From NCBI RefSeq assembly GCF_003334385.1, contig NZ_QOWN01000007.1: a stretch of 64,000 nt of DNA. One strand, 5' to 3'. The notes beneath the pieces were generated by a model, which was not told the DNA's origin, searched no databases, and saw only the letters and a program-made list of their open reading frames with translations. The stretch is from Escherichia coli (GTDB taxonomy: Bacteria > Pseudomonadota > Gammaproteobacteria > Enterobacterales > Enterobacteriaceae). The translations under genes were made by a program, and so were the position numbers. Positions 43,939 to 62,817 of the stretch are shown piece by piece; the stretch's first letter is position 1, and each line of letters starts with the position of its first letter.

Positions 43939-45366
43939 ATGATGAATGACGGTAAGCAACAATCTACCTTTTTGTTTCACGATTACGAAACCTTTGGCAC
44001 GCACCCCGCGTTAGATCGCCCTGCACAGTTCGCAGCCATTCGCACCGATAGCGAATTCAATGTCATCGGCGAACCCGAAGTCTTTTACTGCAAGCCCGCT
44101 GATGACTATTTACCCCAGCCTGGAGCAGTATTAATTACCGGTATTACCCCGCAGGAAGCACGGGCGAAAGGAGAAAACGAAGCCGCGTTTGCCGCCCGTA
44201 TTCACTCGCTTTTTACCGTACCGAAGACCTGTATTCTGGGCTACAACAATGTGCGTTTCGACGACGAAGTCACACGCAACGTTTTTTATCGTAATTTCTA
44301 CGATCCTTACGCCTGGAGCTGGCAGCATGATAACTCGCGCTGGGATTTACTGGATGTTATGCGTGCCTGTTATGCCCTGCGCCCGGAAGGAATAAACTGG
44401 CCTGAAAATGATGACGGTCTACCGAGCTTTCGCCTTGAGCATTTAACCAAAGCGAATGGTATTGAACATAGCAACGCCCACGATGCGATGGCTGATGTGT
44501 ACGCCACTATTGCGATGGCAAAGCTGGTAAAAACGCGTCAGCCACGCCTGTTTGATTATCTCTTTACCCATCGTAATAAACACAAACTGATGGCGTTGAT
44601 TGATGTTCCGCAGATGAAACCCCTGGTGCACGTTTCCGGAATGTTTGGGGCATGGCGCGGCAACACCAGCTGGGTGGCACCGCTGGCGTGGCATCCTGAA
44701 AATCGCAATGCCGTAATTATGGTGGATTTGGCAGGAGACATTTCGCCATTACTGGAACTGGATAGCGACACATTGCGCGAGCGTTTATATACCGCAAAAA
44801 CCGATCTTGGCGATAACGCCGCCGTTCCGGTTAAGCTGGTGCACATCAATAAATGTCCGGTGCTGGCCCAGGCGAATACGCTACGCCCGGAAGATGCCGA
44901 CCGACTGGGAATTAATCGTCAGCATTGCCTCGATAACCTGAAAATTCTGCGTGAAAATCCGCAAGTGCGCGAAAAAGTGGTGGCGATATTCGCGGAAGCC
45001 GAACCGTTTACGCCTTCAGATAACGTGGATGCACAGCTTTATAACGGCTTTTTCAGTGACGCCGATCGTGCAGCAATGAAAATTGTGCTGGAAACCGAGC
45101 CGCGTAATTTACCGGCACTGGATATCACTTTTGTCGATAAACGGATTGAAAAGCTGTTGTTCAATTATCGGGCGCGCAACTTCCCGGGGACGCTGGATTA
45201 TGCCGAGCAGCAACGCTGGCTGGAGCACCGCCGCCAGGTATTCACACCCGAGTTTTTACAAGGCTATGCAGAAGAGATTCAGATGCTGGCGCAGCAGTAT
45301 GCCGACGATAAAGAAAAAGTGGCGCTGTTAAAAGCGCTTTGGCAGTACGCGGAAGAGATTGTCTAG
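43939..45366 (+). CDS. sbcB: Exodeoxyribonuclease I (start at MMNDGKQQ; the ORF extends upstream to 43867)
   Basis: 475 aa, matches SbcB. Confidence 0.9.
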   Translation: MMNDGKQQSTFLFHDYETFGTHPALDRPAQFAAIRTDSEFNVIGEPEVFYCKPADDYLPQPGAVLITGITPQEARAKGENEAAFAARIHSLFTVPKTCILGYNNVRFDDEVTRNVFYRNFYDPYAWSWQHDNSRWDLLDVMRACYALRPEGINWPENDDGLPSFRLEHLTKANGIEHSNAHDAMADVYATIAMAKLVKTRQPRLFDYLFTHRNKHKLMALIDVPQMKPLVHVSGMFGAWRGNTSWVAPLAWHPENRNAVIMVDLAGDISPLLELDSDTLRERLYTAKTDLGDNAAVPVKLVHINKCPVLAQANTLRPEDADRLGINRQHCLDNLKILRENPQVREKVVAIFAEAEPFTPSDNVDAQLYNGFFSDADRAAMKIVLETEPRNLPALDITFVDKRIEKLLFNYRARNFPGTLDYAEQQRWLEHRRQVFTPEFLQGYAEEIQMLAQQYADDKEKVALLKALWQYAEEIV

Positions 45367-50311: not shown

Positions 50312-50393
50312 CCGTTATCTCCTGATACACCTTAGATCTATAAGGCTACGCTAGCGTATCAAAACTGACAATTCATTCTATGAATGAATCTGT

Positions 50394-50648
50394 TCAATAA
50401 TGATAACGACATGCTGCAATGAGCAGTGAATCGTCGGTAACCGCGTATACCAGACGGTGCTCCTCTGTAATGCGTCGGGACCAGAAACCTGACAAATTAT
50501 GTTTCAGGGGTTCTGGCTTCCCCTTACCTTCAAATGGCGTTCTGCGGGTATCTTTGATAAGTTCATTGATCTTTTTAACAATTCGCTTATCTGTTTCCTG
50601 CCAGTACAGATAATCGTCCCATGATTCCTCAGACCAGATTAGTTTCAC
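50394..50648 (-). CDS. yoeB: Type II toxin YoeB (ribosome-dependent mRNA interferase)
   Basis: 84 aa, matches YoeB. Confidence 0.9.
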
Positions 50649-50896
50649 TCAATGATGTCCTTTTCCGTTCCTTTGCCTGATTTCAGGCTATCGATTGAGT
50701 CCATCAATCTCCGGGCGTTAGCGGGGGAACGCAGTAGATAAGCCGTCTCTTCCAGGGAGTTATATTCTTCGAGTGACATCAGAACACAAGCCTCTCCATT
50801 CTGACGAGTAATAAGGATCGGGGCATGATCTTCAACGGCTTTCATCATTGTTGCCGACAAATTCTGACGCGCTTCGCTGTAGCTAATTGTACGCAT
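50645..50896 (-). CDS. yefM: Type II antitoxin YefM (start at [11 protein letters not shown])
   Basis: 83 aa, matches YefM; 4-nt overlap with yoeB. Confidence 0.9.
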
Positions 50897-50911
50897 GTCA
50901 ATCTCCTCTTT

Positions 50912-50929
50912 TGTACAGTTCATTGTACA
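50912..50929 (-). promoter_or_regulatory. yefM-yoeB operator: palindrome TTGTACA-N6-TGTACAA upstream of the yefM RBS
   Basis: TGTACA-core palindrome read from sequence; consistent with the known YefM/YoeB autoregulation site. Confidence 0.55.
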
Positions 50930-51179
50930 ATGATGGGCGTTAATTAACTATTTATTAATTAGTTTGTAGATCAAGATATTGTCAGTGAGACGAAAAATCC
51001 AGGCTTCGCTATTTTGGGTACCGTCAGGTTAGAGGACAGTCCTCTTAGCCCCCACCTTTCCCCGCTCATTCATTAAACAAATCCATTGCCATAAAATATA
51101 TAAAAAAGCCCTTGCTTTCTAACGTGAAAGTGGTTTAGGTTAAAAAACATCAGTTGAATAAACATTCACAGAGACTTTT

Positions 51180-58505: not shown

Positions 58506-59486
58506 TTACTTCGCGTTGTAATTACGCAGAGCGTTACGCCCCAAGACAATCCCCGCGCCAACCATGCCGCCCAGCAGCACCGCCAGAATCAAGGTAATTG
58601 CCTTTTTCGGGCTATCGCGACGAATAGGTAACGTCGGTTTCATCACATAACGGTAAGCATGAATATCAAGATCATCAACCTTTAAGTTTTCGATATCCAG
58701 CAGGTTTTGACGTGTCTGATAGTAGTTTGGTGAGAACACTAACGGACGTGTCGCCTCATGCTTAATCATCGACTCCAGAGCTTCGCTCCCCAAAAGGAAC
58801 AACGTATCTTGCGTCACATCTTCAGTCTGCTGAACCTGTGGCTTTGTCACCTGCGCCTGATTCGCATACTGCAACGCTTCCTGAATCTGACGGATACGCA
58901 GATCTTTCTGCTCCTGCGCAACCACTTCCTGGGTCTTCAGCGAATCCTGCAAGTTTTTCATACGCAGCGCGATGTTGTCTTTCAGGTCTTTTTCCAGTTC
59001 TTCGTTTACCTGGTCGTCAACTTGCTGGATATACTTCGCCAGCTGCTTCTGCGCACCTTCAGGTGTTTCACCAACATAAGACACCGCCAGTGGTAACGGC
59101 TGGTTTTTAACGGTAGGCTCAATGGTCAGCTTCTCTGCTTCTTCCTGGTTATCCAGCGTTTCCGCTAATGCTGAGAATGCAGTGCTGTAACGTCCGATAA
59201 GTGAAGCCTGAATGTCGGAGACTTTCGGTACAGCCGGACCGTAAATCACATTCATCGCGTTGGTATAACCAGCGATTTGCCCCACATCAGGTTGAGTAAC
59301 GATAGCTGTGGAAGTCCACTTTTCTTTGGCAACGGCCAGATACCCTATAGCCAGGGCAATAGCCACAATGACAGAGATGATAATTGTCATCTTGCCACGC
59401 CACAACTGCACCAGTAAATCAATCAAATCAATCTGTTCCGGGTCATGGTTTTGCCCAGAAACATTATTATTTTCTACTCTCATCAT
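58506..59486 (-). CDS. wzzB: O-antigen chain-length determinant Wzz (start approximate; the ORF extends to 59540)
   Basis: Matches WzzB/Cld; two TM segments flanking a periplasmic coiled-coil region. Confidence 0.85.
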   Translation of the reverse strand: MMRVENNNVSGQNHDPEQIDLIDLLVQLWRGKMTIIISVIVAIALAIGYLAVAKEKWTSTAIVTQPDVGQIAGYTNAMNVIYGPAVPKVSDIQASLIGRYSTAFSALAETLDNQEEAEKLTIEPTVKNQPLPLAVSYVGETPEGAQKQLAKYIQQVDDQVNEELEKDLKDNIALRMKNLQDSLKTQEVVAQEQKDLRIRQIQEALQYANQAQVTKPQVQQTEDVTQDTLFLLGSEALESMIKHEATRPLVFSPNYYQTRQNLLDIENLKVDDLDIHAYRYVMKPTLPIRRDSPKKAITLILAVLLGGMVGAGIVLGRNALRNYNAK

Positions 59487-59632
59487 TACCCTAACGGACG
59501 AAATAATTTTAAGTCGCCATAGTTTAGCGATAATCGCCATGAATGCTATAGGATAAATGATAAAAATAATGAATTATTACAAAGGGAACATAAGAGAATC
59601 AGGGCGAAAATCGCCCTGATAACATGATGTTA

Positions 59633-59737
<105 letters not shown>

Positions 59738-59908
59738 CTAATAGTCAGCTTGGAACAGCTTTGATTGTAAAATGAGCACGTTACCAGAAAAAACAGCCAG
59801 GTTTAGAACTGATACCGATTATCTTTTTTTCTTGTCTAACGGTATGATTTAACTTTCAGTTATGCCAGATGAAGATTGGCTATATTCTAGCCTGAGCGAG
59901 GATTATAA

Positions 59909-60913
59909 ATGAAATTTCTGGTTACGGGAGCTGCTGGCTTTATCGGTTTCTATGTAAGTAAACAGCTTCTTGCAGCTGGTCATCAGGTTGTAGGCATTGA
60001 CAACTTAAATGATTATTACGATGTCAACCTCAAACAAGCACGACTTGATTTACTCAAGCACGACAATTTCAGTTTTTATAAAATTGACCTGGCCGATCGC
60101 GAGATAATGGCGGCACTGTTTGCAGACGAGCGGTTCGATCGCGTAATAAACCTCGCTGCGCAAGCCGGTGTACGTTACTCCCTTGAAAATCCCAATGCAT
60201 ATGCAGATGCAAACCTGATTGGATTCCTGAACATACTGGAAGGATGTCGCCATAATAATGTTCGGCATCTACTTTACGCTTCCTCCAGTTCTGTTTATGG
60301 CATGAACCGCAAGATGCCTTTCTCTACAGATGACTCTGTAGATCATCCTGTTTCGCTGTATGCAGCAACTAAAAAGGCGAATGAACTCATGGCCCATACG
60401 TATTCTCATTTGTATGGCTTACCGACCACAGGGCTGCGTTTCTTTACGGTTTATGGTCCATGGGGACGTCCAGATATGGCATTATTTAAATTCACTAAAG
60501 CCATGCTGGAAGGTAAAAGCATTGATGTTTACAACTTCGGCAAAATGAAGCGTGACTTTACTTATATTGATGATATTGCCGAAGCTATTATTCGCTTACA
60601 GGATGTTATTCCAGAAAAAGATCCACAGTGGGCTGTAGAAACAGGCTCGCCAGCAACAAGTTCAGCACCATATCGTGTCTATAACATTGGTAATAGTTCG
60701 CCTGTGGAGTTAATGGATTATATCAATGCCTTAGAAGAGGCTCTGGGTATTGAAGCCAACAAGAATATGATGCCTCTCCAACCCGGTGATGTACTGGAAA
60801 CCAGTGCTGATACAAAAGCACTGTATGACGTAATAGGATTCAAACCTGAAACGTCAGTTAAAGAGGGGGTAAAGAACTTTGTAGAATGGTATCGTAACTT
60901 CTATAAAGTTTGA
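59909..60913 (+). CDS. gla: NAD-dependent UDP-glucuronate 4-epimerase
   Basis: 334 aa SDR-type epimerase (GAAGFIG, YxxxK); location between wzz and ugd as in gla-carrying O-antigen flanks. Symbol is tentative. Confidence 0.7.
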
Positions 60914-60936
60914 TTTTATAAAACCATAATAAATAT

Positions 60937-60960
60937 CCTCCGGCATAGCCGGAGGTTTTT
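60937..60960 (+). terminator. Rho-independent terminator after the epimerase gene (cctccggc ata gccggagg TTTTT)
   Basis: Perfect 8-bp stem plus T-run. Confidence 0.6.
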
Positions 60961-61645
60961 CAAATGCGCCTATAAGGCTCTCTTACCAGCCGCGCCCTAA
61001 CAGGCGCACACGATCTGACATTTGCATCCAACTTCGTTACTTACGGCCCGTAAACGGGCTGCCCGGATAGGGAATCGATAACTGCTCTCCCATTTTATCC
61101 TCTTCAAGCTGGTGCTTTATGTAATCCTGTATCTTCGCCGTGTTCTTACCCACCGTATCGACGTAGTACCCTCTGCACCAGAACTCCCTGTTCCTGTATT
61201 TGAATTTCAAATCACCAAACTGCTCGTAAAGCATCAGACTGCTTTTCTCTTTCAGATATCCCATAAAGCCGGATACGCTCATTTTGGGCGGGATCTCCAC
61301 AAGCATATGGATATGATCTGCACAGCATTCAGCTTCAAGAATCCGTACGCTTTTCCACTCACACAGCTTTCTCAAAATACAGCCTATTGCTCTACGCTTC
61401 TCTCTGTAGAACACTTGTCTTCGGTATTTTGGCGCAAAAACTATGTGATATTTACAGTTCCATCGGGTGTGCGCTAAGCTCTTTTCGTTCCCCATTGGGA
61501 CCCCCTTTTGATTTCTTGTTTGACACTTGCAGTTGCCAGACCGCAAGGTGTTTTAACAAATCAAAAGGGGTTATAATAACTGGCTCAAAGCTGAAAGCTT
61601 TCCGGAACCCCCAGCCTAGCTGGGGGTTTTCTTAGTATGAAACAA
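60961..61645 (-). mobile_element. IS200-family insertion sequence (boundaries approximate)
   Basis: Contains an IS200 tnpA; stem-loop ccccagc/gctgggg near 61596-61614; about 0.7 kb between the epimerase terminator and the ugd stop. Confidence 0.6.
61037..61495 (-). CDS. tnpA: IS200 transposase TnpA (Y1 HUH family), 152 aa from MGNEKSLAHTRW
   Basis: HUH motif (HIHMLVE) and catalytic Tyr region (RGYYVDTVG); near-identical to IS200 TnpA as I recall it. Confidence 0.9.
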   Translation of the reverse strand: MGNEKSLAHTRWNCKYHIVFAPKYRRQVFYREKRRAIGCILRKLCEWKSVRILEAECCADHIHMLVEIPPKMSVSGFMGYLKEKSSLMLYEQFGDLKFKYRNREFWCRGYYVDTVGKNTAKIQDYIKHQLEEDKMGEQLSIPYPGSPFTGRK

Positions 61646-61650
61646 AATAA

Positions 61651-62817
61651 TTAATCATTGCCAAACAAGTCGCGCGTATAAACCTTATCTGCTACATCAG
61701 CCAGATCGGCAGACATACGGTTAGAAATAATAACATCAGCTTCTTGTTTGAACGCATCCAGATCACGTACCACGCGCGAACGGAAAAAATCGACCTCTTT
61801 CATCGCTGGCTCATAAACGATTACTGGCACACCTTTAGCCTTGATTCGCTTCATAATACCCTGAATCGAGGAAGCACGGAAATTGTCTGAACCACTCTTC
61901 ATAATCAAACGATAGACGCCAACAACTTTCGGTTTACGTGCAAGGATAGAATCGGCAATAAAATCTTTGCGCGTGCGGTTGGCGTCAACAATTGCCGAGA
62001 TCAGGTTATTCGGCACAGACTGGTAATTTGCCAGTAACTGCTTAGTATCTTTCGGCAGACAATAACCACCATAACCGAATGACGGGTTGTTGTAGTGATT
62101 ACCGATACGCGGGTCAAGGCATACGCCCTCAATAATCTGGCGTGAATTAAGCCCCAGGCTTTCAGCATAACTATCAAGTTCATTGAAATACGCTACACGC
62201 ATCGCCAGATAGGTGTTGGCAAAAAGTTTAATCGCCTCAGCCTCGGTTGAGTCAGTAAACAATGTTGGTATGTCTTGCTTAATAGCGCCTTCCTGTAATA
62301 ACGCTGCAAAACGTTCTGCGCGGTCGGATTGCTCGCCAATCACAATGCGTGATGGGTGTAAGTTATCATAAAGTGCTTTACCTTCACGCAAAAACTCAGG
62401 CGAAAAGATCACATTTTCAATACCAAACCGTTCTTTAATGGACTCTGTAAAACCAACAGGGATAGTTGATTTTATAATCATTACAGCATTGGGATTAATT
62501 TCTGTCACATCGCGAATGACCGCTTCCACGCTTGAGGTATTAAAATAATTTGTTTTCGGATCATAATCGGTAGGTGTGGCAATAATAACGTAATCGGCAT
62601 TTTTATACGCGTCATACTTATCTGTCGTAGCGCGGAAATTGAGATCTTTAGTCGCCAGATACTCTTCAATCTCCTTATCAACAATCGGTGACTGCTTCTT
62701 GTTAAGCATGTTCACTTTGGCCTGAACGATATCCAGTGCAACCACTTCGTGATTTTGCGCAATCAGAATACCATTTGAAAGACCAACATAACCTGTTCCT
62801 GAAATTGTTATTTTCAT
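61651..62817 (-). CDS. ugd: UDP-glucose 6-dehydrogenase (start at [12 protein letters not shown])
   Basis: 388 aa, matches Ugd. Confidence 0.9.

Follow-up and report, generated by a model that had tools for sequence, protein, structure and literature searches.

The window, the whole stretch of 64,000 nucleotides of Escherichia coli DNA that was analysed, carries in its right part the genes hisA-hisF-hisIE (plus strand), wzzB (minus), a 3' remnant of ugd (minus), an epimerase gene (plus), tnpA (minus), ugd (minus) and gnd (minus). The epimerase gene, which is gla-like, and ugd are convergent, and the transposase gene tnpA lies between them within a copy of the insertion sequence IS200C (Table 1). 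The presence of IS200C between gla and ugd is ordinary and already annotated; RefSeq gives the same gene arrangement in four complete O48 genomes and names IS200C at this very site. What is new is the loss of the left tip of the element together with the native gla/ugd terminator.

Table 1. Features of the gla-ugd region of the window, and the position of a comparable insertion in an avian strain.
Feature	Position	Strand	Remarks
wzzB	58506-59483	-	
Hairpin with T-rich tail directly 3' of the ugd remnant	59598-59620	-	Terminator-like site; in occupied and empty strains
ugd 3' remnant, pseudogene, K-12-like C-terminus	59630-59731	-	Shown by translation and by local alignment with the 3' end of the resident ugd; incomplete pseudogene in RefSeq
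SDR epimerase gene, gla-like, 334 aa, intact	59909-60913	+	Stop codon 15 bp before the IS
IS200C copy, 704 of 710 bp	60929-61632	-	Aligned against three other copies and empty sites
IS right-end subterminal hairpin CCTCCGGCATAGCCGGAGG, then TTTTTC on the plus strand	60937-60955	.	In all IS200C copies aligned
tnpA, 152-aa Y1 (HUH) transposase, ORF intact	61037-61495	-	
tnpA leader/art200 (STnc490) module including the left-end hairpin	61505-61628	-	Rfam RF01405
IS left-end perfect hairpin CCCCCAGC-CTA-GCTGGGGG	61608-61626	.	Unique in the window; about -22 kcal/mol
TTTTCT, 6-bp repeat holding the 38-bp deletion junction	61627-61632	.	Window against empty sites and full IS copies
ugd, UDP-glucose 6-dehydrogenase	61651-62817	-	NF011631, 793 bits (cutoff 757); RefSeq; stop codon 18 bp from the IS
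Avian-strain IS200C insertion	L135 2530-3290 (E. coli CT30)		

The transposase scores 143.5 bits against NF033573, 'IS200/IS605 family transposase' (cutoff 55), and 8e-37 against the Pfam domain Y1_Tnp (PF01797). Its translation shows an HIH motif (DHIHML) and a C-terminal Tyr (QDYIKHQ), and its homologues in the PDB include Sulfolobus 2ec2 and ISHp608 2a6m. At the DNA level, IS200C with 95-99% identity to the element is present in 3164 of 5426 complete E. coli genomes, thousands of copies matching at 98-99%, and the E. coli records that span 80% or more of the query number 2087. It differs from the IS200C copy between dsbA and yihF by 5 substitutions in 704 bp (99.3% identity). The encoded protein departs from the common IS200C protein by S39C and G83E, the glycine at position 83 being found also in the Sulfolobus homologue 2ec2. 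The leader matches the Rfam model STnc490 over its full length, with 144 bits (gathering score 56) and an E value of 2.2e-30. Other Rfam matches between 58000 and 64000 (snoZ223, Trp_leader, sR035 and a second, weak STnc490) fall far below their gathering scores and were set aside as chance similarity.

From the transposase profile scores, the IS200C DNA matches and the Rfam leader match together, it follows that a sequence-only reading of this region was correct in its core observation: at the O-antigen flank, a minus-strand tnpA of the IS200 family separates an epimerase gene from ugd. That reading had named assignment to a different IS family as grounds for abandoning it, and both the protein and the DNA belong to IS200/IS200C. 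Its placing of tnpA about 150 bp from the ugd stop agrees with the 155 bp measured from the tnpA start, the IS end itself being only 18 bp from that stop. The interval it gave, 59909-61645, does hold the IS but spans the epimerase gene as well, and the element proper is confined to 60929-61632.

In its architecture the window copy is a typical member of its group. Like IS200C elsewhere in E. coli, it has the same 152-aa Y1 transposase, the leader/art200 module and subterminal hairpins at both ends and is without terminal inverted repeats, and a comparison of empty and occupied sites reveals no target-site duplication. The right-end hairpin CCTCCGGCATAGCCGGAGG occurs once in the window, is terminator-like on both strands and has a folding energy of -15.5 kcal/mol; no second IS200C copy, nor either of its hairpins, was found elsewhere in the 64 kb. 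Salmonella IS200 and Yersinia IS1541 share this architecture and the left-end hairpin 25-mer with the window element, which is about 87% identical to IS1541, but the left tip reads GTGCCCAG in Yersinia and GTGCACAG in IS200C. In Salmonella IS200 the left-end hairpin (nts 12-34) is described as a bidirectional terminator, which keeps outside transcription from reaching tnpA, and art200/STnc490 as an antisense regulator (PMC4513863). The STnc490 match in the window lies on the tnpA-sense strand, the same source placing art200 antisense to that stretch. Where the window copy does depart from IS200C is at its left end: the six terminal bases and the flanking hairpin with T-run, kept in every other copy examined, are missing. 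Lacking tip and target, it is therefore an IS200C member by descent, but a truncated one.

The epimerase is an extended SDR protein, with the Rossmann GxxGxxG motif as GAAGFIG and the catalytic YxxxK as YAATK, and a Pfam Epimerase domain is on record for the product. It is near-identical to the Klebsiella SDR structure 5u4q (E 2.9e-190), whose label is that of a dehydratase; the next-best match is Bacillus cereus 6zl6 (E 5.7e-44), a full-length homologue for which the PDB label reads only 'Epimerase domain-containing protein'. We take 6zl6 to be the B. cereus UDP-glucuronate 4-epimerase. No NCBIfam equivalog reaches its cutoff for this product, and one source names a member of its cluster UDP-glucuronate 4-epimerase. 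The extended-SDR fold and full-length homology are as in the Gla/Uge-type enzymes represented by these two structures, and the gene is adjacent to ugd, whose product makes the substrate. By homology and by this linkage, identification as a UDP-glucuronate 4-epimerase is plausible. The O48 and O113 polysaccharides presumably contain GalA.

Upstream of gla, between it and wzzB, lies the ugd remnant, a 102-bp segment about 76% identical to the 3' end of the resident ugd. The hairpin that follows it is probably the terminator of an original K-12-like ugd. The gla-positive genomes that were inspected carry the remnant too, annotated as a pseudogene, and it has the look of a trace left when the epimerase gene was imported along with a foreign ugd 3' end.

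The ends of the element were defined by alignment, as had been proposed, using the copy between dsbA and yihF against the corresponding empty site of MG1655. The full element is 710 bp long and was inserted without target duplication. In the orientation of the window it reads ATAAATATCCTCCGG...GCTGGGGGTTTTCTGTGCAC, its ends also being quoted as ATAAATATCC...TTTTCTGTGCAC. The right end in the window is exact, with the junction between 60928 and 60929 reading ...aaaaccata/ATAAATATCC (slashes mark junctions throughout). At the left end, GGGGGTTTTCT stops at 61632 and is followed by host sequence, tagtatg, where GTGCAC is expected. A megablast alignment that began the IS at 60909, in the region of the epimerase stop, reflects chance AT-rich similarity, and the empty sites put the right end at 60929. 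The hairpin at the right end had been taken for the terminator of the epimerase gene; this attribution does not hold, since the hairpin and its T-run are present in every IS200C copy aligned.

Strains lacking the insertion were sought with a 1376-nt query, 59560-60935, comprising the ugd remnant, the epimerase gene and its flank, which was matched in 277 complete genomes at a coverage of at least 80%. In 265 of these the junction from the epimerase gene through the terminator to ugd is uninterrupted, and all are at least 95% identical over 311 nt. The empty site, as in LR-48 and an O113:H21 strain, reads ccata/agaaaaGGCCCTAATTTATTAGGGCCttttct/tagtatg. It contains a 36-nt perfect palindrome with flanking A- and T-runs, 16 pairs and a terminator-like score, and its folding energy is -23.9 kcal/mol in either direction; from its sequence it reads as a textbook bidirectional terminator serving gla and ugd, which converge on it. 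The comparison with insertion-free strains, another step that had been recommended, thus brought to light a 32-bp segment of native terminator that is absent from the window. An intact IS plus this segment would amount to 710 + 32 = 742 bp and 704 bp are present, so that 38 bp are missing. The repeat TTTTCT that ends the element in the window is common to the IS left end and to the tail of the native terminator.

The preferences of IS200-group elements bear on how this arrangement arose. A scan for the left-end hairpin, restricted to one genome per species, recovered 120 loci, from Yersinia pestis, Vibrio, Brenneria, Pluralibacter, Dickeya, Edwardsiella, Mailhella and several MAGs. Nearly all copies have a lineage-specific tip of 6-9 nt ahead of the left-end hairpin, for example GTGCACAG, GTGCCCAG, GTATAGAG, GTGAAACG or GGTTAAAAG. 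Directly 5' of this tip, a GC-rich hairpin with a T-run is found in 97 of 125 IS200-group copies, compared with 56 of 5000 random positions (1.1%) at the same loci. This count rests on a strict perfect-stem criterion, and most of the other 28 copies visibly have imperfect hairpins. Set against these 125 copies, that of the window is the only one without both tip and hairpin. The native gla/ugd terminator, read in the orientation of the IS, is itself a site of this kind, GGGCCTTTTCT/TATGG, and insertion there reproduces the right-end junction observed.

In Yersinia pestis NCTC5923, there are tandem IS1541 copies (L070, L071, L073, L117) in which one copy has inserted with its left end right behind the right-end hairpin + ATATTTAT of another. 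To judge from these tandem junctions, the element would seem to choose targets that resemble its own right end. A tendency of IS200/IS605 elements toward such target sites has been reported statistically in a preprint (10.1101/2025.07.22.666184); a literature search for an explicit statement of the IS200 target found only this statistical one. With a GC skew of -0.033 for the plus strand of the window, the tnpA-sense strand falls on the lagging-strand template. This is the orientation expected for the IS200/IS605 family from IS608 and ISDra2.

The 25-nt left-end hairpin AAAACCCCCAGCTAGGCTGGGGGTT is also found, as an exact match, in MAG contigs assigned to Oxalobacter, Saccharibacteria, Bacillota, Peptococcaceae, Mailhella, Desulfovibrio and Elusimicrobiaceae (L008-L068). 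It usually lies some 15-200 nt from a contig end, the assemblies breaking within the IS, and here too the tip of 6-9 nt differs by lineage.

In the light of the missing 38 bp, the locus is most probably explained by a single IS200C insertion after the native terminator, followed by a 38-bp deletion between 6-bp repeats. An ancestral IS200C, with tnpA in the same direction as ugd, would have inserted just past the 3' side of the native terminator's T-run, TTTTCT, so that the plus strand then read GGGGG-TTTTCT-GTGCAC-agaaaa-GGCCC...GGGCC-TTTTCT-tagtatg. The left end of the IS and the native palindrome each contribute a TTTTCT repeat (AGAAAA when read along the IS), and a deletion between the two would have taken out the element's terminal GTGCAC (6 bp) and, with it, all 32 bp of the native terminator. 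The deleted stretch contains a strong hairpin, a feature that favours slippage (slipped-strand mispairing). Both junctions and the missing bases are read directly from the alignments; the order of events, and slippage as the cause of the deletion, we infer. The predicted intermediate, GGGCCTTTTCT/GTGCACAGAAAACC, had no exact match in metagenome contigs, and complete E. coli genomes did not show it in this allele either, which makes the two-step history a reconstruction and not an observation.

The first of the two proposed steps does occur in this intergenic space. In the avian strains CT30 (NZ_CP032078.1), APEC E956, EC31 and EC12, which came out of the search of complete genomes, an independent and intact IS200C follows a divergent gla-ugd terminator, reading ...GGCCTTTTTATT/GTGCACAGAAAACCCCC... 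The intergenic space, the orientation and the insertion point just after the T-run are the same as in the window. In contrast to the window, these strains have a divergent gla-ugd allele and other flanks, an internal stop makes their gla a pseudogene, and both the GTGCAC tip and the native hairpin are intact.

Other histories have to be weighed against this one. The simplest would be an intact IS200 lying downstream of the epimerase gene's own terminator, with nothing lost on insertion. The terminator-like hairpin and T-run after the epimerase stop and the intact tnpA give it a certain appeal, but it is scarcely credible, as the hairpin belongs to every IS200C copy, the palindrome of the 265 genomes is absent and the left tip is missing. 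It could also be imagined that an IS variant already without its tip inserted into an ancestral site that had no palindrome, with no deletion taking place, or that the assembly is at fault. Such a history is conceivable only in a formal sense, because the intermediate was not recovered, and no support for it was found. It too is very improbable, given that the palindrome is present in all 265 uninterrupted sites, that other copies carry the tip next to a hairpin and T-run, and that both junctions agree base for base in fourteen independent assemblies. The last point, which rests on four complete genomes and ten further assemblies, also disposes of the assembly chimera that the sequence-only reading had allowed for.

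A further history keeps the same insertion and changes the agent of the loss, the 38 nt being excised by the IS200C transposase instead of by replication slippage. TnpA would cleave the plus strand after two sites of the form hairpin + TTTTCT and rejoin the flanks, excising a 38-nt pseudo-element. The two sites would be the palindromic left-end hairpin, read on the other strand, and the native terminator, each resembling the element's own right-end cleavage context of hairpin + ATATTTAT/. In favour of this, hairpin + TTTTCT directly precedes the junction on either side, structures of this kind are followed by insertions of IS200-group elements (the right end of another copy in the Y. pestis tandems among them), and GTGCAC is its own reverse complement. 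On the other hand, cleavage of the bottom strand is, to our knowledge, not described for the IS200/IS605 family, and no second example was found among the 125 copies. Slippage between the 6-bp repeats would moreover leave the very same product, so that the two are not separable by sequence, and the activity of the IS200 transposase is reported to be extremely low (PMC4513863). Excision by the transposase in place of slippage is thus unlikely, and that the enzyme catalysed the loss by acting on two generic 'hairpin + T-run' sites is distinctly doubtful. If true, it would mean that Y1 transposases of the IS200 group treat intrinsic terminators of the host as pseudo-ends; terminators could then be erased or replaced, leaving IS hairpins as the 3' ends of host genes.

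Whichever agent removed it, the native gla/ugd terminator is gone and IS hairpins stand in its place. Transcript termination, which the sequence-only reading had raised, was the right concern. The gla transcript reaches the right-end hairpin and UUUUUC 23 nt past its stop codon, and that of ugd meets the left-end hairpin 24 nt past its stop, where UUCCGG follows and there is no U-run. The right-end hairpin with TTTTTC would serve as the 3' end of gla mRNA and the left-end hairpin as that of ugd; judged from their positions, these IS hairpins would now form the 3' ends of both messages. As UUCCGG rather than a U-run follows the left-end hairpin, termination of ugd may be weaker than assumed, with some read-through into the tnpA leader. 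With gla and ugd convergent and an IS hairpin still in the path of each, any effect on function is probably slight. Both coding sequences are left whole, and because the genes converge, polarity has no downstream gene to act on. It is only for this reason that polarity is irrelevant here. The more general description of IS200 as usually polar-neutral was mistaken, IS200 having come to light through a polar mutation in hisD and bearing a bidirectional terminator (PMC4513863).

The loss of the left tip is also expected to affect mobility. In the IS200/IS605 family the left cleavage site is the junction of target and tip, and from IS608-type biochemistry its loss should immobilise the element. 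The window copy, although its tnpA reading frame is still intact, would thus be immobilised by the loss of its left cleavage junction. Since the left tip was lost together with the native terminator, the IS is probably a frozen lineage marker. From the identical junctions of 14 assemblies it can be said only that the copy has not moved.

The same allele is shared by the O48 assemblies examined. All four complete genomes with an O48 wzy (at least 99% identity) carry the IS, and the other complete genomes are without it at this site. The exact Gla protein of the window was found in 644 blocks of a large collection, with a transposase gene at the same offset in all 24 contigs that were read (24/24). 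Ten loci recovered with 10-kb flanks have identical junction strings and an O48 wzy/wzx at 99.7% identity or higher, and their his-operon flanks differ from the window by 0.5-2.4%. As 14 of 14 O48 assemblies examined share identical junctions, IS200C at the O48 flank appears to be one old event and a usable marker, bearing out the earlier suggestion that its position may matter for strain typing. The window strain is itself inferred to be O48, its O-antigen cluster lying past the end of the window.

The junctions aaaaccata/ATAAATATCC and GGGGGTTTTCT/tagtatg accordingly offer a stable and apparently universal marker of the O48 O-antigen flank. For annotators, the locus is a reminder that the end hairpins of an IS are not to be taken for host terminators. 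Its significance for biology at large is slight, as IS200C is common and this copy was already annotated; it does, on the history favoured here, provide a clean natural example of an IS200-group element that targets an intrinsic terminator and is then frozen by a microhomology deletion.

Two sub-haplotypes can be distinguished by tnpA codon 83, which is GGA or GAA, the latter being found in the window and in five of ten further assemblies. In the window, position 61248 has T for C on the plus strand, the substitution that underlies TnpA G83E. The change is compatible with decay of a copy that is no longer mobile. In one O48-type cluster (OU349845.1; L143 15698-21005), that of one of the ten loci, wzy is cut to 216 aa by the insertion of fec-like genes, and genes for sigma-70, FecR and a TonB receptor replace the remaining O-antigen genes, a rearrangement which may render the strain rough.

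Positions 59560-61660 are 100% identical to strain VE-T2, the window elsewhere being 98-99% identical in a whole-window BLAST, which showed the two strains to be distinct. The positions that differ from VE-T2 are at about 41221, 43958-43987 and 50388-51038. Compared with that strain, the window is without an IS621 copy and without a P22-like prophage remnant between dacD and sbcB. The gap between yeeZ and hisL is about 650 bp in the window against 207 bp in VE-T2, and the extra DNA may be a yefM-yoeB toxin-antitoxin pair, which is seen there in related loci.
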